The notes: generated by a model from the letters alone, not told the origin. 64,000 bases of DNA from an uncultured Muribaculaceae bacterium (GCA_965231035.1 OZ246409.1:338075-402074); one strand, 5' to 3'; positions 30,536 through 64,000 are shown, counted from the stretch's first letter. Made by a program: numbers and translations.

Positions 30536-30562
30536 AAAATCCCGCGATTGCGGGATTTTTTA
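30531..30562 (+). terminator. bidirectional intrinsic terminator between pgsA and dnaJ
   Basis: Hairpin TCCCGCGATTGCGGGA flanked by an A-run and a T-run. Confidence 0.6.
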
Positions 30563-31684
30563 AAACCAATTTTTCTTATCTGGTTTTGATTCGGCAAATT
30601 CTGTTAATACTTTCTTTTGCTTTTCATTCAGTTTGGTTGGAACTTGCATATTTATTTCTAAATATAAATCACCCACGCTGCCACTGCGTCTGCCAATCGG
30701 CATACCATGCCCACGAACGCGTAATTTTTCACCGATTTGTGTCCCACTTGGAACTTTGACCGATAATTTTTTTCCATCGATTGTTTCAATTTCAACCTCG
30801 CCCCCCAGCGCAAGAGTTGTGAAAGGAACATTTTCACGTATCAATAAATCACTGCCCAACCTTGTAAACCTCTTGTCTGGACGAACACGAATATCTAAAT
30901 AGAAATCGCCAGCGGGTGCACCCATCATTCCTGCCTCGCCCTGACCTGCCAGACGTAAACGTGTTCCGTCTTCGACACCGGCTGGGATTTCAACATCAAT
31001 TGTTCTTTGTTTATGGACTGTGCCTGTACCATCACACGCAGAACATTTCTTTTTTATTTTGTGACCCAGTCCATTACAATCCGGACATGGTGTTTCCATT
31101 GCGAAAAATCCCCGTTGGGAATGAACAGTACCTGTTCCATGACATCTTTCACAAACAGGTGCAGCTTTACCATCATCAGTTCCATGACCATTACATTTTT
31201 CACATTTTACATTGCTGGAAAATTTAACAGTATGTGTTTTTCCGAGATAAGCATCACGTAAGTCAATTACGACTTCGTCCAACAAATCGCGACCCGCATT
31301 TGCGTGTTGTTGTCCACCAGCACCACCAAATCCATCAAATCCAAAACCACGCATAGCCTCGCGGATAATATCTTCCATACCTGCGCCGCCGCCCATATCA
31401 AAATGAAAACCACCATTGCCAAAAGGATTTCCACCTGTACCAGCACTTGCCCCATTACCGCCCGCAAAGGCCGCTTCGCCGAATCGGTCATACGCAGCGC
31501 GCTTTTGTGGATCGCGCAGGACATCAAAAGCATTATTTATTTCTTTGAATTTTTCTTCTGCTGCCTTGTCACCGTGATTTTTATCAGGGTGATACTTCAT
31601 AACCAGTTTATGGTAAGCCTTTTTTATATCAGCATCCGATGCATCGCGTACAACACCTAAAACTTCATAAGGATTTTTATTCAT
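30560..31684 (-). CDS. dnaJ: molecular chaperone DnaJ
   Basis: J-domain (YHPDKN); four CxxCxGxG zinc-finger repeats. Confidence 0.92.
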
Positions 31685-31780: not shown

Positions 31781-32386
31781 TTAATTACGTATATTTTCTG
31801 CTATTGTTCTAGCAAAACTTAACAAACTTTCCGTTATTATTGGTTTATAGGGTCTTGCTGTTGATATTGTTTTTGCATCATTTGAAATAATAACCGGTGT
31901 TAAACTTTCATCTTTGGCTATTTGAACAGTTTTAATGTCCGAAGCTAATGCAACTACATTTGCCCTGGGGTATTCAAATCTGAAATCTGAAAACAAGTCG
32001 GAAAGAGAAGTCTTTTCATCTGACACAATTTTATATTCATGAACAATATAATCTTTCAGCATATAATTATAATCAGGGATTTTTTTTGCATCTTTTTCTT
32101 CGGTGTATGCAATTAACTTAATTGTTCCCCTTCCAAAACCAGACAAAATATTTAAAGCTTCTTGTGAACCACAGATAAAATATTTTGCAGAATTAATGTT
32201 TTCAAGATAGCTTTTTAAAAAACCAATTTTATTAAGGTGCAATAACACTCTTGTCTTAAAAGCGCCGTATTTTTTAACAAGTTGATATTTCTGGGAAAAT
32301 TTAGAATCAAAAAAAATAATTTTTGATGGGTCAAACAGAATTATCGTCCTCATATGATAGTCTATACCATCAACCGGTTTTGGCAT
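31781..32386 (-). CDS. hypothetical protein
   Basis: 201 aa with no confident family assignment. Confidence 0.35.
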   Translation of the reverse strand: MPKPVDGIDYHMRTIILFDPSKIIFFDSKFSQKYQLVKKYGAFKTRVLLHLNKIGFLKSYLENINSAKYFICGSQEALNILSGFGRGTIKLIAYTEEKDAKKIPDYNYMLKDYIVHEYKIVSDEKTSLSDLFSDFRFEYPRANVVALASDIKTVQIAKDESLTPVIISNDAKTISTARPYKPIITESLLSFARTIAENIRN

Positions 32387-55115: not shown

Positions 55116-56404
55116 TGAAAAAATTTTTTATCCAAACTTTTGGCTGCCAAATGAATGTCTATGACGGACAGCGTATCGCAAATATGTTGCAAACAAACGG
55201 CTGGCAGAAAATAGATGATATGCCAAACGCCGATTTAATTATTTTAAACACCTGCAGTGTTCGTGAAAAGGCATCAAACAAAGTATTCAGTGCATTGGGT
55301 CGCATACGCGATTCAAAAAAACCAAATGCCATATTTGGAATTGTTGGTTGTGTCGCACGCGAATCGGGTGCGGATGCTTTTCGTCGTATTCCAGATTTAA
55401 ATTTTGTTTTGGGACCACAGAGTTATCATAAATTGCCAGAAATTTTGGAAAATCCGGATTTAAAGCTGCTTAATATTGACCTTGGTGGCTTGGAAAAATT
55501 CGATGAATTGCCACAAATGAATAAATCCGATGCAGTTGCATATATTCCAATCCAAGAAGGTTGTAACCACTGTTGCACTTATTGCATTGTTCCATACACA
55601 CGTGGACGCGAACTTTCACGCCCATTTGACGACATTATGCAAGATGTTGAGATCGCGGCAAACACTGGTGCAATTGAAATTTGCTTTCTGGGACAGAATG
55701 TTAATGGCTATAAATTCGAAAATTACAGACTTTCGGACCTGATTCGTTTAACAGCAAAGCTAAATTCCATCAAACGAATCAGATTTACATCCAGTTACCC
55801 AACAGAAATGACAGAAGATTTGATAAAATTGTTCGGATCCGAGCCTAAATTACTGCCTTTTTTGAATTTGCCTATACAAAGTGGGTCTTCTGATGTATTG
55901 ACAAGAATGAATCGTCTATATTCCTTAAATCTATATATAGATATAGTTAATAAATTAAAAGAAATTCGACCTGATATTCAAGTATCAAGCGATTTTATTG
56001 TTGGGTTCCCGGGTGAGACCGATTCGGATTTTGAACAAACAATGGACATAGTAAAGCGAATCAGATACATAAATTCGTATTCTTTTAAATATTCACCCCG
56101 TCCCCATACACTGGCAGCAACAATGCCGAACCAAGTTCCTGAAAATATAAAACGCGAGCGGCTGAAAATATTGGATGGATATTTGAACGATATTCAACGC
56201 GAATTTAACGAATCTTGTATTGGTAAGACTTTTGAATGCCTGTGCGAAGGCCCAGATAAAAGCGGTAAACATTTGGTATTCCGTACCCCATACATGCAGC
56301 AATGCATTGTTGCTAAACCAGATCATAATGTTCCTGAACTGGCTGAAATAAAAATTACCGCAGGAAACAAATCTTCTCTGCGTGGGGAATTTGTTAAAAA
56401 ATAA
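55097..56404 (+). CDS. miaB: tRNA-i6A37 methylthiotransferase MiaB
   Basis: MTTase N-domain FGCQMN, radical-SAM CNHCCTYC, TRAM C-terminus. Confidence 0.88.
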   Translation: MSKNKIMKKFFIQTFGCQMNVYDGQRIANMLQTNGWQKIDDMPNADLIILNTCSVREKASNKVFSALGRIRDSKKPNAIFGIVGCVARESGADAFRRIPDLNFVLGPQSYHKLPEILENPDLKLLNIDLGGLEKFDELPQMNKSDAVAYIPIQEGCNHCCTYCIVPYTRGRELSRPFDDIMQDVEIAANTGAIEICFLGQNVNGYKFENYRLSDLIRLTAKLNSIKRIRFTSSYPTEMTEDLIKLFGSEPKLLPFLNLPIQSGSSDVLTRMNRLYSLNLYIDIVNKLKEIRPDIQVSSDFIVGFPGETDSDFEQTMDIVKRIRYINSYSFKYSPRPHTLAATMPNQVPENIKRERLKILDGYLNDIQREFNESCIGKTFECLCEGPDKSGKHLVFRTPYMQQCIVAKPDHNVPELAEIKITAGNKSSLRGEFVKK

Positions 56405-57944
56405 AATTTAGTTCGACACTGATTTTCTGGCTGGTTCTGTATTTATCATGATTCACAGAATAAGATAAGTTTGCACCTGCCATGTCTTCAATGGACCAAA
56501 AGTTCACTCTGGCGCCAAAGGTCTGAATATTATTTGTCTGTAATATCCCAAATAATTGATAATCATTTTTTATACCCAACATTTCATAACTACGTCCAAT
56601 CATTCCGCCGCCCCGCCCTGATATTTTCGAATCGGATTGGTGCAAAACTTTCTGGTAATCCCCACCAATTCCAATAAATGGTGAAAAATAAAAATCTGAT
56701 AAAAAGTCAAACTTTATGCCCGAATCAACAGTTCCATAAACCGAAGATCCATTTGGGTTATAAACAACTTTGTCACCATCAAAAATCATATCTGTTCCAA
56801 ATGAAGCGAAAGTTGCTCCAACGACCGATTTTAACCACAAATTGTCATTTTTGATATACCCACGAATATTTCCTCCATACAAAAAGCCTGAAAAGTTGTT
56901 AATATCGTTATTATTTTCAAACTTACCAGCATATACAGACAAAACGAAGTCTTGGTCTGTTATTAATGTTGAAAAAGACATTTTTCCACCGTATAAGCCC
57001 AATCCGTCCGAAGAAGAAATGTAAAGTGCTTCGAAACCATTAGATGCAGAATCATTAAATGTGTTTGGATTATTCGTTTCGAAATTATTAAATGTCTTTA
57101 TTGGGTCTATTAAATTTATAGGATTAAATAACACCGACCGTCTCATAAGTTCATAAAGCCCTGCGGTACTGCTCTCTCGGTCCATTGCCTGCACCAAAGA
57201 ATTATAGTGCGAACTGATTCGTAAATTATTAATCATAATTCCACGTGATTTACCTAAAACTTTTTGATAATCGGTTTCGCGGTCAATACTAAGATAAATA
57301 TTATCATCTTTGCGAATTGTAGTAGCTGTGTATAAACTTTCTAAACCTTCAACATCAACACTTATAACCCCGCTGCCTGAAACATTGGCAAGCAGTAAAC
57401 TTCCGTCTGAAGCATATCTATTGTCTAATTTTAATCTATTTTCACCAATTAATTCTATTTGTGGTGAAACTAAAATGCTTTTATCAAGGTAAATATAAGC
57501 ATTACTGAGTGTTAACTTACCTGCGCCGCCTGATATAGACAATATTTCAGAAAACTTAATATTGTCACTGTTATTAATCAGAATTGAATACTTATAATTA
57601 TTTGTTGATAACTTAGAAATATCAGAATTTGATCTTATAACCTGGGTTAAAGTTGAATTATTTCCAACATTTATTTTTCCTGAAATACTTCCACTGTTTT
57701 CCAAAACTAAATTACACCCATCGGTTATATCAATTTCTCCGTTAATTCTACCCATATTATAAAAGTTCAAGGAATTATTTATATACAGGTTTTTTACATA
57801 AATAGAACCATTATTGCCAACAATTGTATCCTTGAAAATGTTATATTTTACCCCGGTTACTGGGCCATCAATAAAATCCGGCTCTTCTGAAAAGGCCGGC
57901 AATATTATGAGTACCATAATTAAAAATACAATTATTTTTCTCAT
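56394..57944 (-). CDS. autotransporter-like outer membrane protein (passenger plus C-terminal beta-barrel)
   Basis: Signal peptide; C-terminal ~280 aa of alternating strands ending ...VELNFIF. Confidence 0.4.
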   Translation of the reverse strand: MRKIIVFLIMVLIILPAFSEEPDFIDGPVTGVKYNIFKDTIVGNNGSIYVKNLYINNSLNFYNMGRINGEIDITDGCNLVLENSGSISGKINVGNNSTLTQVIRSNSDISKLSTNNYKYSILINNSDNIKFSEILSISGGAGKLTLSNAYIYLDKSILVSPQIELIGENRLKLDNRYASDGSLLLANVSGSGVISVDVEGLESLYTATTIRKDDNIYLSIDRETDYQKVLGKSRGIMINNLRISSHYNSLVQAMDRESSTAGLYELMRRSVLFNPINLIDPIKTFNNFETNNPNTFNDSASNGFEALYISSSDGLGLYGGKMSFSTLITDQDFVLSVYAGKFENNNDINNFSGFLYGGNIRGYIKNDNLWLKSVVGATFASFGTDMIFDGDKVVYNPNGSSVYGTVDSGIKFDFLSDFYFSPFIGIGGDYQKVLHQSDSKISGRGGGMIGRSYEMLGIKNDYQLFGILQTNNIQTFGARVNFWSIEDMAGANLSYSVNHDKYRTSQKISVELNFIF

Positions 57945-58052
57945 CTCCGAAAAAATCCTAGCAAATATGACTTTGTTCTTAAAGGATTTTTTTCATAAAC
58001 TTGAAAAGCTATTAAATAGCTCTACAATGTTCAATGAACCAAGGAGATTGAC

Positions 58053-58490
58053 ATGAATATTCTAAAAAAAGTTCATCAAACATTTTCCACCAAGAAAGAT
58101 ATAGATATTGTTATATCTTATATCAAAGCTTCCTTAAAATTCAATTTAGACTGTGCTAGGTTCCAGCAAGCAACAAAAATGGAAATCCATTCTGATGACA
58201 AATTGCTAAACCAGTCAGAACAACTTATAAATTTGGTGATAAAAGATATAGAAGAAATCAAGAAATTCACCAACGCAGCAAAAGAAAGTTTAAAGAAAAC
58301 AAAAAATTCTGGTTCCGAACTTTCCCCTGACGAAATTTTTACAATAGATATGTCAGCAATCAGGGATATTAAAAAAGTAGGTTTAACAAGAAAACTTAGC
58401 GATGACGAAAGAAAGTTGATTAAAAGTGCCACAAATAGATTTAACCAGGTTTATGCTGAACAAATAAAAGGTCTGAAATCCAAGGACTAA
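58053..58490 (+). CDS. hypothetical protein
   Basis: 145 aa, charged/helical. Confidence 0.35.
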   Translation: MNILKKVHQTFSTKKDIDIVISYIKASLKFNLDCARFQQATKMEIHSDDKLLNQSEQLINLVIKDIEEIKKFTNAAKESLKKTKNSGSELSPDEIFTIDMSAIRDIKKVGLTRKLSDDERKLIKSATNRFNQVYAEQIKGLKSKD

Positions 58491-58582
58491 AAAACATAAC
58501 ACCCGGAATAATAAGCAAAAAAGCTTGCTTTTGTTAGATAAATATATATAATCAGCAGGTCTTTTTAGTTATATTATGACCC

Positions 58583-58658
58583 GGGTGCGTAGCTCAGTTG
58601 GTAGAGCAACTGACTCTTAATCAGTGGGTCTGGGGTTCGAATCCCCACGCGCCCACCA
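58583..58658 (+). tRNA. tRNA-Lys (anticodon CTT)
   Basis: GGGTGCG acceptor, TAGCTCAGTTGGTAGAGC D-arm, anticodon loop CTCTTAA, GGTTCGAATCC T-arm, ACCA. Confidence 0.9.
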
Positions 58659-58699
58659 GTGGTTTAAGTAATTGAAATTACTTAATAATTTAGTTAAAT

Positions 58700-58727
58700 T
58701 TATCCCGCAAAACTGCGGGATTTTTTA
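58700..58727 (+). terminator. intrinsic terminator after tRNA-Lys
   Basis: Hairpin TCCCGCAAAACTGCGGGA followed by TTTTTT. Confidence 0.6.
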
Positions 58728-58851
58728 TTGATTTTGACTATGGTATGGATACGTATCAAGTAAATATACCAGATATATCCCCAAATCTATCCACTGCCCA
58801 TATTCTGATAGTCACACTTGGTAATATTATTTATAAATAATATAAAGATTA

Positions 58852-59421
58852 TTAATTATTAACAAATTCAGATTTTAATTTTGAGAATACCATTGTATCT
58901 CCAATTCTTCCATCTGGATAGGGAAAGTCCTGTCTTAAAATACCATCAAGGTTATAACCCAATCTTTTAGGTATATTTTGACTGCTTATATTGTTCGTGT
59001 CACAATGGATTTCAATTTTGTTCCAACCATCAATTTCGAACACTGCTTTTTCTAAAATTTTCACAGCATTTGTCATTATACCATTACCGCCAAACTTTTT
59101 ATCCAACCAGTATCCAATCTCAACTTTTCTTTTACTTTCTTCTCGTTTTACAAAGCCTATTGATCCTATAACTTTATTATCTTTAAATATTAAGTATGTC
59201 CACTCTTTGTTATAAACGTGTGATAGACCATCATATTCATCTGTTACAGAATTTGTTCTTGCAACCCAAGGTAGCCAATATCCAAGATATTCACGATTTC
59301 TTTCTACAATTTCAAAAACTTCTTTTGCAAGTTCAAAAGTTGGTTTAATACGACGTAATTCTATACCGTATTCATCTAATGTTTCTGGGAAATCTTTCAT
59401 AGTTTTACCTTTTTGTATCAA
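58852..59421 (-). CDS. GNAT-family N-acetyltransferase (RimL/RimJ-like)
   Basis: GNAT fold pattern (IGSIGFVKRE...GYWLDKKFGGNGIMT). Confidence 0.6.
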   Translation of the reverse strand: MIQKGKTMKDFPETLDEYGIELRRIKPTFELAKEVFEIVERNREYLGYWLPWVARTNSVTDEYDGLSHVYNKEWTYLIFKDNKVIGSIGFVKREESKRKVEIGYWLDKKFGGNGIMTNAVKILEKAVFEIDGWNKIEIHCDTNNISSQNIPKRLGYNLDGILRQDFPYPDGRIGDTMVFSKLKSEFVNN

Positions 59422-59432
59422 GTATAAAACTA

Positions 59433-61058
59433 TTATTTATAAAATTCAATCTCTTGCTCACTGAACTTTTCGTACTTACTTGCTATATCAAACAATGTTT
59501 GCAGGTTTATGGTGGCTGGTGCGTTGCCAGACATAATCGTGTTTATAATCTTTGGTGACATATAACAAAGATTTAAATACTTATAAACCGTTCGATGGTC
59601 GCGACCCATTTTGGTGGCAAGTTTTCGGACGGACATTCCATTCTCAATTTCACGTTTATACTTCCAGGCGTATGCCAATGCTCGTACCAGTGTGTTATTA
59701 TTTTCTGATTTGGTCATTATTAATTTTTCACCACATTGGTGTTTATAGATAATTGAACTGGTACTGGCGATACTTATTTCTGTTTCAATCACAATATATT
59801 TTTCATCATCTGTTAAATAGCAATTTTCCATTTGATTATTAAATGCATTCATATAATTTTTATCTGTAAATATATCCAAATACTTCAAATCATCAGAGTT
59901 TATAAAAATCGTGATTTTATGGTCTTGATAAATAATCTTATCAATCATTGGGTTTATAATTGCCTCCGTATATTTAATCTGCTTAAACATCAGACGCTTT
60001 TCAGATGGCAGAAAGTTCATATCAGAATCTAAAAACTGCCGCACAGTGTCAGATACTATTTTATCAATATGTCCCATTGGAATAGAATGCTTGCCAGCGC
60101 GATAATATTTGTATTGTTTTATACCTTTACGCCCAGATGAATTCTTGAACACCGTACCCGAAGTTGTTTGTATTTTATTATTTAATAAAGATGGTGCTCT
60201 TTTACAAACTGCATCACCACGATTATTATTATTTTTTAATTTTTCTTGAACATTATTAAATAATTCTATATCAAGTATTTCAGGATGTTCGCCTTCAAAA
60301 ATATCACCACTGGATTTATTTGGTAATTTACCAAGAAATATAGGATTGGTCAGAAACCTTTGTAAAATTGATACGCCCATAATGTTGCCACCAATAGTTT
60401 TTCCTTTTTCTGTAATCCATTTTTTACCATAAATCCCTTGTTCAATTAAACGTAATCTGCAATCAGACAAAGATGATGATTCCAGATAGGTTTCAAATAT
60501 TTTCCGCACTATTGGAATCTCTGACTCATTCGGTACCAGCTTGTGAAACTTTATATCGTACCCCATTGGTGGCTTACCACCGACCCACATCCCCTTGGAC
60601 TTGGTTGCGCGTATTTTATCGCGTATACGTTCGCCAGCAACCTCACGTTCAAACTCTGCAAACGACAGTAACATATTCAGCGTTAATTTACCCATGGCGC
60701 TATTGGTGTCAAAACTTTGTGTGATACTGACAAGATTACAATTATGTTTATCAAACTCTTTCATCATACTTTTAAAGTCAAAAATACTGCGCGACAATCG
60801 GTCAATTTTATAAACCAGAACGCAGTCAATTCTGCCACTACGAATATCAGTCAGCATTTCTTGTAAAGCGGGTCGCACCATTGTTCCACCAGAAATCGCG
60901 GCATCACTGTAAGTTTTAATATATTCCCAACCTTGGAACGTCTGGGACATAATGTATGCCTTAGCGGCTTGTTCCTGGTTGTCCAATGAATTAAATTCCT
61001 GATCCAGGCCATGCTCGCTGGACTTACGCACATAAATTGCACATCTTACATTTGCCAT
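59433..61058 (-). CDS. large serine recombinase (resolvase/invertase N-domain plus recombinase domain plus C-terminal HTH)
   Basis: AIYVRKSSE nucleophile region, IDRLSRS motif, about 540 aa. Confidence 0.85.
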   Translation of the reverse strand: MANVRCAIYVRKSSEHGLDQEFNSLDNQEQAAKAYIMSQTFQGWEYIKTYSDAAISGGTMVRPALQEMLTDIRSGRIDCVLVYKIDRLSRSIFDFKSMMKEFDKHNCNLVSITQSFDTNSAMGKLTLNMLLSFAEFEREVAGERIRDKIRATKSKGMWVGGKPPMGYDIKFHKLVPNESEIPIVRKIFETYLESSSLSDCRLRLIEQGIYGKKWITEKGKTIGGNIMGVSILQRFLTNPIFLGKLPNKSSGDIFEGEHPEILDIELFNNVQEKLKNNNNRGDAVCKRAPSLLNNKIQTTSGTVFKNSSGRKGIKQYKYYRAGKHSIPMGHIDKIVSDTVRQFLDSDMNFLPSEKRLMFKQIKYTEAIINPMIDKIIYQDHKITIFINSDDLKYLDIFTDKNYMNAFNNQMENCYLTDDEKYIVIETEISIASTSSIIYKHQCGEKLIMTKSENNNTLVRALAYAWKYKREIENGMSVRKLATKMGRDHRTVYKYLNLCYMSPKIINTIMSGNAPATINLQTLFDIASKYEKFSEQEIEFYK

Positions 61059-61173
61059 ATTTATCCTTTTGATTATGCCCATTTACGCTCTGTTGGGACG
61101 CGAAGTCAAGTCGTTAAAACACTTGATTTATAAGGTTTTGTAAGCATTAGTATGTATGTAAAAGAGGCAAGAT

Positions 61174-61497
61174 ATGGATAAAAAGCAACAGCAATATATG
61201 GCACAATGTAAAGTTACAGGTTATAAGATAGAACAAAAGCATTTAAGTAAATTGAATAAGTATTTAAAAGACCCAGATGGTTGTATCGAGCGTTCAATTA
61301 AAACAAAATATTATATAAAACCAGGCACAAGAATTACGAAAAAATACAAAGGAAAAGAATACATTGTGACAGTGATTTCAGAAAACAAATTTATGTATAA
61401 AATGGATACTTTTGAAACACTATCAGCAGTAGCTGTCGCAATAACCGGCCATAAAGTTTCCGGTTATGAATTCTTTGGTTTTTATAATAAGCATTAA
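61174..61497 (+). CDS. DUF2924-like small protein commonly paired with serine recombinases
   Basis: C-terminal TLSAVAVAITGHKVSGYEFFGF matches the DUF2924 signature. Confidence 0.5.
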   Translation: MDKKQQQYMAQCKVTGYKIEQKHLSKLNKYLKDPDGCIERSIKTKYYIKPGTRITKKYKGKEYIVTVISENKFMYKMDTFETLSAVAVAITGHKVSGYEFFGFYNKH

Positions 61498-61564
61498 AGT
61501 AGCTGAAACATATTGAATTTATAAATATTTTAAAGTAAAATGTGCCAAGAAATAAGGATGTTTT

Positions 61565-61933
61565 ATGAGCGCAGAAAATATAAATTTTACAGGCAATGAT
61601 AAATTTTTAGAATTTATAGTAGAAATTTGGCGCCTTCCAAAATTATTCAAAAAGCTTATTGCAAAACAAGATTATAGCGAGCAACAAAAATACGTAAGTC
61701 AATTCAACTGGTTTAATAAAAAAGCTCTCGATTTTTTACAAAGTGAAGGACTCTCTTTTCCGGAATATGAAGATATGCCTTTTGATGTGGGTATGCCACT
61801 AACACCAATCAACATAGGCGATTTTAGTTCGGAAGATGAGTTGGTAATTGAACAAATACTGGAACCTGTTATTATGAAAGGTGACAAAATTATCAAAGCT
61901 GGCACAGCAATTCTAAAAAAGGCAGAGAAATGA
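61565..61933 (+). CDS. small GrpE-like protein (putative nucleotide-exchange partner of the downstream Hsp70)
   Basis: C-terminal ...FDVGMPL...LEPVIMKGDKIIKAGTAILKK resembles the GrpE beta-domain pattern (MQKGY.L.GR.IR.A.V.V.K). ORF stop overlaps the Hsp70 start. Confidence 0.35.
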   Translation: MSAENINFTGNDKFLEFIVEIWRLPKLFKKLIAKQDYSEQQKYVSQFNWFNKKALDFLQSEGLSFPEYEDMPFDVGMPLTPINIGDFSSEDELVIEQILEPVIMKGDKIIKAGTAILKKAEK

Positions 61934-64000
61934 AAAATTTTATCGGAATAGATTTAGGAACAACAAACAGTGCGATATGTTCGTATGACGGTGAACACGT
62001 GCGTATTTACAAAAGCCCTGATCAGACCGATGTGACACCATCGGCAATTTACATTGATAAGCGTGGTAATAAGTATGTTGGAAAGCGTGCTTATGATTAT
62101 ATACCAAACGATCCTGATAACGTGGCTGTAAGGTTCAAAAGGCTGATGGGGACAAACACCCCAATAGAAATACCGAACCTAGGCAAGACAATGCTGCCAG
62201 AAGAATGCTCTGCCGAAATCTTAAAAGTTTTATTTAATTATCTGCCAGATGAACTACAAAAAGATCCCGATATAGGCACGATTATAACCACCCCAGCGGC
62301 GTTCAATCAGATGCAGAAAGAGGCAACCCTGCAAGCAGCAAACATGGCTGGTATCGGGAAAGTTGCGCTTATGCAAGAACCTGTAGCGGCAATCATGAGC
62401 GTTATGAAAACGCGCCCTGAAGATGGGATTTTTCTAGTTTATGACTTAGGCGGCGGCACATTGGATGTCGCTGTAGCGGAAAGTATCAATGGTCATGTAA
62501 ATTTACAGAGTCATGGCGGTATAGCAATGTGTGGCGGGCGTGATTTGGATCGTCTATTGGTGGAAAATGTTGTTTATCCATGGCTTAGATCGAACTTTGA
62601 TTTATCTTCTGAATTTTGGAATGATCCGAAATATAAATCGTTGGTACGTTTGGTTGCATATGCAACAGAACGCGCAAAAATAGATTTGTCTGCAAAAGAG
62701 GACGCAACAATCAGTCTATCAGAAAATGAGGTGCGTATAAAAGATGATAAGAATGCTGATATATATTTGGACATCCCTGTAGATCGTAAAACTTATAACG
62801 GACTGATTTCAGAACGAATAGATGAAACAATCAAAGCGGTTCGTGAAACCTTAGATAAGGCAGGATTGAAACCCGATGATGTAGTGCGGATTGTTTTTGT
62901 AGGTGGCCCGACTTGCTATAAACCGTTACGTGACAAAGTGTCTTCCGAACTAGGGATTCCAGCAAACACAGACGTAAACCCTATGACTGCAGTTGCTGAA
63001 GGTGCAGCTATATTTGCAGAATCAATAGAATGGTCTTCACAGGATCGGTCGCGCAAAAACATGCGTGGCTCTGTCGAAGCACAAGGCGTTGTAAATGTAA
63101 AATTTGATTTTATCGCAAGAACTCCAGATGTAAAAACTAAGTTGGTAGTCAAACTGCCGGAAAAGACAAAAGGTAAATTTGAATTTCAGATTGATTCCAC
63201 CGACTCTGGGTGGTCATCGGGTAAATTATCATTGAAAGACGGGGTGACTATAGACTTAGTGCTGTCGAAGTTTGGCGAAAACAATTTTAAGGCATTTTTA
63301 TTTAACGAAATCGGCGAAAGTATTGCACTTGATCCGAATAAAATTGTGATCACACGAACTGCTGCAACAATCGACTCTATTCCGGCATCACATTCTGTCG
63401 GTATTGAAGTGTTGGATAAACTTGGCGGAACACCGATGTTGGATTATATGGTACGTTCTGGCGATACTTTGCCAAAACGCGGCAAGATGCAATTCAAGGC
63501 GGCTAACACATTGAAATCTGGTGATACAGGCTCATTGAATTTCAAAATATGGGAAGGTGACATTGTGTCACCGATACTGGACAATCGTCTTGTTGGGGTT
63601 ATGAAAATCACAGGAAAAGATTTTGACGATGGGGTTATCCCTGCAGGTGCTGACATAGACCTATCATATGAAATGTCTGACGATGGAAACATACGTCTTG
63701 AAATAACGATACCAAGTATTCGTGGCTCGTTCAACTCTGGTCGAAACTTCTATTCGCGCCAAGAAGGACAACGTGACTATTCTGAAGCACCAGAGGCAAT
63801 TAAAGAAGACGCAGAGTCTACAAAATTACGTGCTGATGAAATGGCGACACATATAAGCGATCCCGAATTAGATAAGACAAGACAAAAACTAGATGAGGCA
63901 TCATCGATATCCTCAGACGAAGTAGATCCAGAAAAGACAAAAGAAGCCGAAGAAAAAGTATTCCAAGCAAAAAAAGATCTTGCCGTTATTCGCAAAAAAC
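61930..64000 (+). CDS. stand-alone Hsp70-family ATPase (partial, runs off window end)
   Basis: IGIDLGTTNSAI phosphate-1 motif, DLGGGTLDV phosphate-2, GGPTCYKP adenosine motif. Not in the ORF track because no stop occurs in the window. Confidence 0.85.
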   Translation, partial: MKNFIGIDLGTTNSAICSYDGEHVRIYKSPDQTDVTPSAIYIDKRGNKYVGKRAYDYIPNDPDNVAVRFKRLMGTNTPIEIPNLGKTMLPEECSAEILKVLFNYLPDELQKDPDIGTIITTPAAFNQMQKEATLQAANMAGIGKVALMQEPVAAIMSVMKTRPEDGIFLVYDLGGGTLDVAVAESINGHVNLQSHGGIAMCGGRDLDRLLVENVVYPWLRSNFDLSSEFWNDPKYKSLVRLVAYATERAKIDLSAKEDATISLSENEVRIKDDKNADIYLDIPVDRKTYNGLISERIDETIKAVRETLDKAGLKPDDVVRIVFVGGPTCYKPLRDKVSSELGIPANTDVNPMTAVAEGAAIFAESIEWSSQDRSRKNMRGSVEAQGVVNVKFDFIARTPDVKTKLVVKLPEKTKGKFEFQIDSTDSGWSSGKLSLKDGVTIDLVLSKFGENNFKAFLFNEIGESIALDPNKIVITRTAATIDSIPASHSVGIEVLDKLGGTPMLDYMVRSGDTLPKRGKMQFKAANTLKSGDTGSLNFKIWEGDIVSPILDNRLVGVMKITGKDFDDGVIPAGADIDLSYEMSDDGNIRLEITIPSIRGSFNSGRNFYSRQEGQRDYSEAPEAIKEDAESTKLRADEMATHISDPELDKTRQKLDEASSISSDEVDPEKTKEAEEKVFQAKKDLAVIRKK

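Follow-up and report, generated by a model that had tools for sequence, protein, structure and literature searches.

The last part of a 64,000-nt stretch of DNA from an uncultured Muribaculaceae bacterium (GCA_965231035.1 OZ246409.1:338075-402074; this whole stretch is hereafter called the window) contains, at 58583-64000, the beginning of an undescribed gene cassette encoding an Hsp70-like ATPase, a mini-GrpE protein, an AAA+ ATPase, and a membrane adaptor, which is the conserved cargo of a tRNA-targeted serine-recombinase element. The literature that we searched holds no description of this cassette. The layout was read from the list of open reading frames (ORFs), a tRNA scan, Pfam searches, and the sequence itself, and the features reported in a preliminary description of this DNA, in the order tRNA-Lys(CTT), terminator, GNAT acetyltransferase, recombinase, DUF2924 protein, 122-aa protein, and Hsp70, were all found where they had been placed (Table 1). 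The same description had presented the last two genes as a pair, which has to be revised: they are the start of a tight four-gene operon encoding the GrpE-like protein, the Hsp70-like ATPase, the AAA+ ATPase, and a 583-aa tail-anchored protein, joined in most relatives by a fifth, membrane partner. As an overall explanation, we consider it rather probable that an integrative element of 9.5 kb, equipped with a private Hsp70 machine, has its left 5.3 kb in this region, the putative role of this machine in conflict or defence being read at the level of the gene neighbourhood.

The operon could be followed past the end of the window in L006, a public contig containing the same protein and located by exact-sequence look-up (a 21.6-kb locus). 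Positions 1-7993 of L006 are 100% identical to window 56008-64000 over 7,993 bases, and a window coordinate corresponds to the L006 coordinate plus 56007. From the GrpE-like gene through a DUF6804 gene, the gaps between consecutive genes are -4, 3, 1, and 17 nt, and a terminator downstream of the operon was located only after a group of TTCCCTG repeats. The stop codon of the 122-aa protein overlaps the start codon of the Hsp70-like gene as ATGA, as had been noticed before, and this 4-nt overlap is present in 58 of 63 related loci; translational coupling of both genes is likely. When ORFs were called in 82 loci and searched with profiles, 62 of them were found to contain the four genes complete, their order and orientation being constant, the incomplete loci being mostly short of upstream sequence. 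In the intact loci, the Hsp70-like protein measures 828-834 aa, and 829-832 aa in nearly all of them.

Structure prediction assigns to the 122-aa protein a GrpE fold lacking the long N-terminal α-helix that constitutes the dimeric stalk of GrpE, and its sequence has diverged beyond the reach of the Pfam GrpE model. The protein has no match in Pfam (none to the GrpE family PF01025 at E ≤ 1), NCBIfam, or PADLOC, and two sequence profiles of its family retrieved no GrpE from the PDB. A word-indexed search returned seven close relatives, and a profile of these retrieved 581 cluster representatives from a library of 1.84 billion proteins, 290 of them below 1e-10. The seven sequences alone gave an unusable model (predicted local distance difference test, pLDDT, 46), and an alignment of 123 sequences was required to reach a pLDDT of 93 and a predicted template modelling score of 0.80. 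In this model, a helical hairpin (residues 12-32 and 37-60) precedes a small β-domain. When it was searched against the PDB with Foldseek, the top 11 matches were all GrpE, from six organisms (probability 0.8-1.0), the best non-GrpE match having a probability of 0.12; a viral fold library, which serves as a negative control, gave no match to the model and no sign of a phage origin. PF01025 is also the commonest sub-threshold Pfam match in the family (16 of 123 members, best E 0.0012, against four for the runner-up family), and hhalign aligns residues 42-120 with residues 118-195 of E. coli GrpE (P 0.021). The GrpE β-domain that the preliminary description had perceived at the C-terminus is consequently supported by structure prediction and fold search, but not by the PF01025 hidden Markov model. 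The protein could act as the nucleotide-exchange factor of the adjacent Hsp70-like ATPase, a role that receives indirect support because of the conserved 4-nt overlap between the two genes.

GrpE-like domains of this family also occur as fusions in other lineages (P0147, P0159, P0171, P0174, P0175, P0180, P0207, P0250, P0235, P0177, and P0129). Reading these sequences shows that, in some, the N-terminal region joined to the domain contains several hydrophobic segments that appear to be transmembrane; in two lineages, the partner is an EVE domain (1e-8) and an HSDR_N domain (2.8e-15), respectively, and one protein has the GrpE-like domain duplicated in tandem.

To judge from its sequence, the Hsp70-like protein consists of an active-type nucleotide-binding domain (NBD) and a divergent C-terminal half. 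The Hsp70 family model PF00012 covers residues 5-364 only (profile positions 2-373 of 599), hhalign aligns the NBD with DnaK 1-377 (E 1.5e-41, 31% identity), and the ATPase motifs GIDLGTTNS, QEP, and DLGGGT are intact. Within the C-terminal half, residues 503-562 align with DnaK 407-461 in a colinear but weak manner (P 0.047), and a canonical DnaK-type substrate-binding domain (SBD) was not demonstrable there by Pfam, hhalign, or PDB profile searches. The Hsp70-like gene is in fragments in L033, L069, and L099 (Aeromonas caviae pKAM471_1), which suggests frameshifts or a decay of the cassette in some hosts.

Many bacteria have a grpE gene followed by dnaK, and the NBD is 31% identical to that of E. 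coli DnaK, both of which would suit a housekeeping grpE-dnaK operon lying beside the tRNA by chance. This explanation, to which we assign virtually no chance, is refuted by scores far below the cutoffs of the DnaK equivalog models (194 and 189 bits against 648 and 822) and of the HscA model (177 bits against 709), together with a length of 831 aa that includes a non-canonical C-terminal half. The lack of the long helix in the GrpE-like protein, the location of the genes inside an element with defined ends, and the presence of the cassette in under 0.1% of species (174 of 185,579) speak in the same direction. By score and architecture, the protein falls outside DnaK, HscA, and HscC alike. The accessory nature of this Hsp70, advanced in the preliminary description, is thereby supported, and its statement that the canonical dnaJ of the host lies elsewhere (30560-31684, where no dnaK adjoins it) is confirmed.

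The set shares several features with the DnaK-DnaJ-GrpE system and its ClpB partner: an Hsp70 ATPase domain with its catalytic motifs, a GrpE-fold partner encoded directly upstream in an overlapping gene, and an AAA+ ring in the same unit. The working logic would be alike (ATP cycle, exchange factor, and hand-over to an unfoldase). In contrast, the GrpE-like protein has 122 instead of 197 aa and remains under the Pfam threshold, the 831-aa Hsp70-like protein shows no significant similarity to the DnaK SBD in its C-terminal half, there is no J-domain protein with an HPD motif, the AAA+ protein has a single ring of Cdc48/VAT type, and the whole set is mobile and rare.

The sequence of the AAA+ protein places it in the classical clade, as a single-ring ATPase of Cdc48/VAT type. 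Its closest solved relatives are VAT (3.5e-52), Cdc48 (9e-48), and p97, and the motifs GKPGTGKT, IIIDEME, and RTGRFD represent Walker A, Walker B, and the second region of homology. No ClpB-type middle domain was recognised in Pfam and NCBIfam searches. The defence ATPase IetA was discarded as an identity for this protein, as it obtains 85.6 bits with NF042959 (cutoff 510) and the likeness is generic, through the AAA domain alone.

The 583-aa protein belongs to no Pfam family and could be held in the membrane by its C-terminal helix, acting as an adaptor or co-chaperone. On visual inspection, the N-terminus of the protein (NPFYILGATPRD...LTTPRKR) resembles a J-domain, with an A-x3-L-x2-P-x2-R spacing that recalls the end of J-domain helix III. 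The J-domain assignment nevertheless found no support: the conserved N-terminus has no HPD, none of 60 members has a DnaJ match in Pfam, and hhalign values are 0.055-0.29; an hhalign comparison of the family with DjlB and DjlC retrieved nothing. The protein also contains a helix-hairpin-helix-like motif, WLPGIGPKRA, with weak Pfam matches in 7 of 60 members. Two loci (L025 7592-11659 and L068 9953-16055) encode two paralogues of the 583-aa family each, one of them far longer (775 and 943 aa, respectively).

A similar arrangement around a specialised Hsp70 is that of E. coli HscC with DjlB and DjlC, where a non-essential Hsp70 has an inner-membrane partner anchored by a C-terminal helix (PMC8215388). 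HscC differs in its length of 556 aa, in that it is thought to need no exchange factor, and in having no AAA+ partner, while DjlB and DjlC are true HPD J-domain proteins. In the mechanism that we propose for the cassette, the Hsp70-like protein would bind a client at the inner membrane and deliver it to the AAA+ ring, which would unfold or extract it, a hand-over postulated because of the analogy with Hsp70-ClpB and Hsp70-Cdc48.

The ends of the element were derived from the comparison of three related elements, L006 (9,495 bp), L181 (8,736 bp), and L008 (9,614 bp); generic repeat finding did not expose them. The tRNA located 5' of the element is Lys-CTT in L006 and Val-TAC in both L181 and L008. 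The L006 element extends from CCACCAG at the 3' end of tRNA-Lys to a second CCACCAG beyond the window, and its attL (cacgcgcCCACCAGtgg) and attR (tacgccaCCACCAGaaa) share seven bases exactly and are identical at about 12 of 14 positions. The preliminary description had predicted a mobile island with its other boundary outside the window, marked by a repeat of the tRNA 3' end, and such a far end, with a short repeat, indeed lies at a distance of 9,495 bp from the end of the tRNA. A longer copy of the tRNA-Lys 3' end is absent from the 21.6-kb locus. In the L008 locus (14.6 kb), the att heptamer is found on the plus strand only at the two element ends.

Both ends have a conserved architecture in the three elements. 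On the left, the tRNA 3' end CCACCA(A/G) is followed 45-55 nt on by the hairpin ATCCCGC..GCGGGATTTTTT, the hairpin sequence GCGGGATTTTT occupying the same relative place in all three, and by the motif TGACTATGGTAT, also at the same position in each and part of an imperfect inverted repeat, which is a candidate site for the recombinase or an accessory protein. On the right, four TTCCCTG repeats arranged as two pairs (L006 11938-12095, L181 8646-8804, and L008 11901-12061) precede the second CCACCA(A/G), which is situated 50-73 nt past the last repeat. TTCCCTG has no other copies on the plus strand of the 21.6-kb locus, and reverse-complement copies are found in L091; the recombinase or the DUF2924 protein probably binds to these repeats. 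Just outside attR, both L006 and L008 show an apparent native tRNA terminator. We suggest that the large serine recombinase, probably with the help of the DUF2924 protein, put the element into the CCA end of tRNA-Lys, and that the hairpin borne by the element would now terminate the tRNA transcript, the native terminator being stranded past the far end. From these ends, the circular junction of the excised element is predicted to read ...tacgccaCCACCAGtggtttaagtaattg... and the empty site ...cacgcgcCCACCAGaaaataaaaacc....

Table 1. Features of the tRNA-Lys-associated element and its gene cassette, in window coordinates or, beyond the window, in L006 coordinates.
Feature	Position	Strand	Evidence or remark
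tRNA-Lys(CTT)	58583-58658	+	Intact, putative integration target; ARAGORN; Rfam tRNA 73.9 bits
attL core CCACCAG	58653-58659	+	Last bases of the tRNA plus one
Terminator-like hairpin ATCCCGC..GCGGGAT, then T-run	58702-58721	+	Borne by the element
Left-end motif TGACTATGGTAT	58735-58746	+	Part of imperfect inverted repeat; same position in L006, L181, and L008
GNAT acetyltransferase, RimL-like	58852-59421	-	PF13302 1.1e-20; NF007539 65.9 bits, below its equivalog cutoff of 184
Large serine recombinase, 549 aa (541 aa from second ATG)	59433-61082	-	Resolvase PF00239 6.7e-38; Recombinase PF07508 2e-10
DUF2924 protein, 107 aa	61174-61497	+	PF11149 1.4e-16, 61.5 bits (cutoff 31.2)
Truncated GrpE-like protein, 122 aa	61565-61933	+	Predicted structure and fold search
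Hsp70-like ATPase, first 690 of 831 codons	61930-64000, runs off window	+	PF00012 2.1e-53; gene end would be window 64425
AAA+ gene, 473 aa	L006 8422-9843		3 nt after Hsp70-like gene; PF00004 5e-29
583-aa protein gene	L006 9845-11596		1 nt after AAA+ gene; C-terminal hydrophobic tail; without Pfam family
DUF6804 membrane protein gene	L006 11614-11907		17 nt after 583-aa gene
Four TTCCCTG repeats	L006 11938-12095 (would be window 67945-68102)		
attR core CCACCAG	L006 12141-12147 (would be window 68148-68154)		

The trio of recombinase, DUF2924 protein, and cassette is also present in a Muribaculaceae metagenome-assembled genome (MAG; L008), a Clostridia MAG (L009), an IMG/VR contig (L091), and a JGI contig (L181). 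The identity of the recombinase to that of L006 (62% in L008, 59% in L181, and 42% in L009/L091) follows the identity of the cassette, that is, the recombinase and the DUF2924 protein diverged in step with it, which bears out the recombinase linkage described earlier. In L182, the DUF2924 gene adjoins the cassette and the sequence ends before any recombinase. The GNAT gene lies inside the L006 element only, being missing from L181, L008, and L009, and is therefore variable cargo.

The recombinase is below the cutoffs of the CcrB and XisF models, and no zinc-ribbon family was found among its Pfam matches; where the zinc ribbon is usual, residues 471-519 (approximately window 59433-59680) give weak helix-turn-helix matches. 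The hidden Markov model check of the 107-aa protein confirmed its DUF2924 family (Table 1). A partial correspondence to the RAMA DNA-binding domain has been described for DUF2924 (PMC11342252), and in the Wolbachia phage WO a DUF2924 gene precedes the recombinase (PMC10299305), so a DNA-binding accessory of the recombinase is the probable function of this protein. With other elements of large serine recombinases (those of SCC Ccr and XisF, as well as phage WO with its DUF2924 neighbour), the present one has in common the Resolvase and Recombinase domains, the adjacent DUF2924 gene, and a short core repeat, whereas it is distinguished from the SCC Ccr and XisF elements by scores far below the equivalog cutoffs and by the zinc ribbon not detected here. 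The CCA end of a tRNA is a target more typical of tyrosine integrases. With its 9.5 kb, defined ends, and tRNA CCA-end target, the element represents a tidy model for integration by large serine recombinases.

The distribution of the cassette was assessed with a degenerate pattern for the 583-aa protein in one genome per species. Relatives were found in the 174 species mentioned above, which are scattered over many phyla: the carriers include alpha-, beta-, gamma-, and deltaproteobacteria, Acidobacteriota, Bacteroidota, Clostridia, and Verrucomicrobiota, as well as Ignavibacteria, Latescibacterota, Gemmatimonadota, Actinomycetota, and Nitrospira. Five plasmids and eight IMG/VR contigs also carry the cassette. 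The latter (L091-L098) are classed as viral, and in L091 the recombinase and DUF2924 genes are arranged as in the Clostridia locus, with part of another recombinase gene in addition; a search for 583-aa homologues in 50,697 GenBank phage records returned none. In RefSeq, the proteins of the cassette are named "hypothetical", "Hsp70 family protein", "ATP-binding protein", or "peptidoglycan-binding domain-containing protein".

In about 75 of the 82 loci, no such recombinase is close by, and the cassette is located on a chromosome, a plasmid, or a transposon of another kind, which shows that it does not depend on this type of element. This observation bears on the idea that the cassette serves the element itself, either as an addiction module that stabilises it or by remodelling the synaptic complex of the recombinase or a protein of replication or transfer. 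Such a role would suit the window's clade, where the small element conserves no other cargo and the cassette has co-diverged with the recombinase and the DUF2924 protein; it would also agree with the known remodelling of plasmid and phage replication proteins by chaperones of the DnaK type (PMC8215388). Nevertheless, given the many loci without this recombinase, we regard it as highly improbable.

Clustering of the neighbouring genes revealed a fifth component in 68 loci, consisting of membrane proteins of variable length (family c3). They share an N-terminal tag, KGF[SA]GLSxL[VA]S[DE]V, followed by one transmembrane helix and usually by a periplasmic PG_binding_1 domain. The same tag is borne by a second family, c8, and in the three loci seemingly without a tagged component it is present in unclustered ORFs. 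Examples of tagged ORFs are L004 11667-12680, L036 7853-9571 and 12811-13863, and L014 11654-12406, with approximately 80 others in L010-L087. A locus encodes up to three tagged proteins, and these differ in the part facing the periplasm (PG_binding_1, Cys-rich repeats, or others). The tag (peptide KGFSGLSSLVSDV) resembles an Hsp70-binding peptide in its hydrophobic core and charged flanks. The window's clade has no tagged partners and has instead the tail anchor on the 583-aa protein; DUF6804 is encoded downstream in two members of this clade, L006 and L009/L091. The tagged membrane proteins would be the likeliest clients or effectors of the system, the tail anchor of the 583-aa protein possibly replacing them in the window's clade.

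These membrane components could also suggest a machine for the quality control or assembly of the envelope or of membrane proteins, performing Cdc48- or Msp1-like extraction or insertion with no part in conflict. The tail anchor of the 583-aa protein, the c3 and c8 partners with their single transmembrane helix and periplasmic PG_binding_1 domain, and the fusions of GrpE-like domains to apparently transmembrane segments all fit such a machine. However, its rare and patchy spread (174 of 185,579 species), on plasmids and integrative elements, suits accessory conflict genes better, and defence genes are frequent neighbours. We therefore judge this explanation to be clearly improbable.

The neighbourhood of the cassette is of the kind commonly seen around defence or conflict systems, as an association. 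Relatives of the cassette are situated in anti-phage defence islands in many bacterial phyla. The cassette often adjoins Hachiman, BREX, Zorya, Lamassu, or restriction genes: PglZ and BrxL are adjacent to it in Marinobacter segnicrescens, four loci have HamA/HamB next to it, other loci have HsdR, and on the Polaromonas plasmid pPNAP01 it is flanked by zorA and brxD. An IncP plasmid of Aeromonas caviae has it directly downstream of the Tn7-like genes tnsD/tnsE. When 54 non-redundant large neighbours within 8 kb were screened against PADLOC, many of them gave near-full-length matches, to PDC-S68, PDC-S37, Hhe, HmaC, HamB, PglZ, LmuB, and RT-Toprim, the matches to MkoA/C being weaker (to 1e-30). 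The cassette itself fits no PADLOC system, and its GrpE-like, Hsp70-like, and 583-aa proteins have no significant PADLOC match; a survey of BREX systems makes no mention of Hsp70. The defence or conflict role raised in the preliminary description thus draws on the neighbourhood, and this, together with the domain fusions, points to conflict with, or defence against, phages or other mobile DNA as the most likely role of the cassette.

According to the main rival explanation, the cassette is a mobile module for proteostasis or stress tolerance. It would be an accessory machine for disaggregation or refolding that raises the tolerance to heat, metals, or other proteotoxic stress, comparable to the transmissible stress-tolerance loci with ClpK/ClpG and small heat-shock proteins. 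All the recognisable parts of the cassette belong to chaperone families (Hsp70 NBD, GrpE fold, and Cdc48/VAT-type AAA+), an Hsp70 with an AAA+ ring is the classic disaggregase pairing, and the neighbours in the window genome are housekeeping genes; E. coli HscC with the tail-anchored DjlB/DjlC, moreover, affects cadmium tolerance (PMC8215388). On the other hand, no small heat-shock proteins or proteases are found alongside, the AAA+ protein is single-ring with no recognised ClpB-type middle domain, and the obligatory partners are N-terminally tagged membrane or peptidoglycan-binding proteins. The recurrent placement in defence islands, beside BREX, Hachiman, and Zorya, and the EVE and HSDR_N fusions also disagree with a stress-tolerance module, which we consider unlikely.

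Several observations weigh against the combined reading of a mobile element with a chaperone machine for conflict or defence. Concerning the element, the att core is short (7 nt exact), and an empty integration site was not found in relatives: in that search, the flanking 145-aa protein had no relatives in the metagenome collection, and the closest PPDK loci (71-82% identity) are non-syntenic and without the tRNA. As for the chaperone, the C-terminal half of the Hsp70-like protein (467 residues) is not demonstrably an SBD (hhalign P 0.047, nothing in the PDB profile search), and the J-domain likeness of the 583-aa N-terminus is not significant, HPD being absent. Regarding defence, the cassettes of the window genome and L183 are flanked by housekeeping and not defence genes, the window's version has no nuclease or other obvious killing effector, and the neighbour counts are raw, without a formal background comparison; the defence role is an association, and guilt by association is not proof.

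Accessory Hsp70 proteins have previously been predicted in conflict systems of two kinds. The GAP1-N2 GTPase systems (Kaur et al. 2020, PMC7159879) likewise have an accessory Hsp70 with its own GrpE in predicted conflict operons, where these proteins are combined with a DnaJ-fused FNIII protein around a central TRAFAC GTPase or, in some systems, around tubulin homologues, mainly in actinobacteria and firmicutes. In contrast, no GTPase gene is among the conserved components of the 82 loci studied here, in which the core partners are the AAA+ and 583-aa families. CnuD of the CoCoNuT type III McrBC systems (Bell et al. 2024, PMC11090510) also presents an Hsp70-like NBD and SBD in defence loci often linked to BREX and type I restriction, but its Walker-type motifs are degenerate, and it is associated with homologues of McrB/McrC and with HEPN RNases, whereas the cassette has intact ATPase motifs, a GrpE-like factor, and no McrBC genes among its conserved components.

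Within the conflict reading, the cassette could represent a new type of immune system, in which the Hsp70-like ATPase and the mini-GrpE would hold or survey membrane proteins through the KGF[SA]GLSxLVSDV tag. Infection, for instance through a phage protein competing as a client, would lead to the release of these proteins or their hand-over to the AAA+ ring, and the resulting change in the envelope would stop the phage; in the window's clade, the tail-anchored 583-aa protein would take this part. This scheme is tentative and, in our opinion, somewhat doubtful. If the defence reading is true, anti-phage immunity would have in chaperone cycles a new principle of sensing or effector action, beside the recent report that DnaJ mediates phage sensing by a bacterial protein related to NLRs (PMC12169576).

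A standard review recognises three types of bacterial Hsp70, DnaK, HscA, and HscC, and argues that the specialised ones did away with exchange factors (PMC8215388). The cassette represents a widespread fourth lineage, which has retained a reduced GrpE together with an AAA+ partner and moves as a unit on mobile DNA; under the immune scheme described above, it would constitute a fourth functional class with an exchange factor of its own. At approximately 6 kb, the cassette is small enough for cloning.

The island is not set apart by base composition, and the tRNA is the only match of an Rfam scan. A 173-aa ORF and the PPDK gene are located outside the element. Upstream of the host dnaJ there is an ORF of 201 aa (31781-32386, minus strand) with no Pfam match. 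Another ORF without a Pfam match, of 516 aa (56394-57944, minus strand), has a signal-peptide-like start and the C-terminus NFIF, and resembles an autotransporter or outer-membrane protein.

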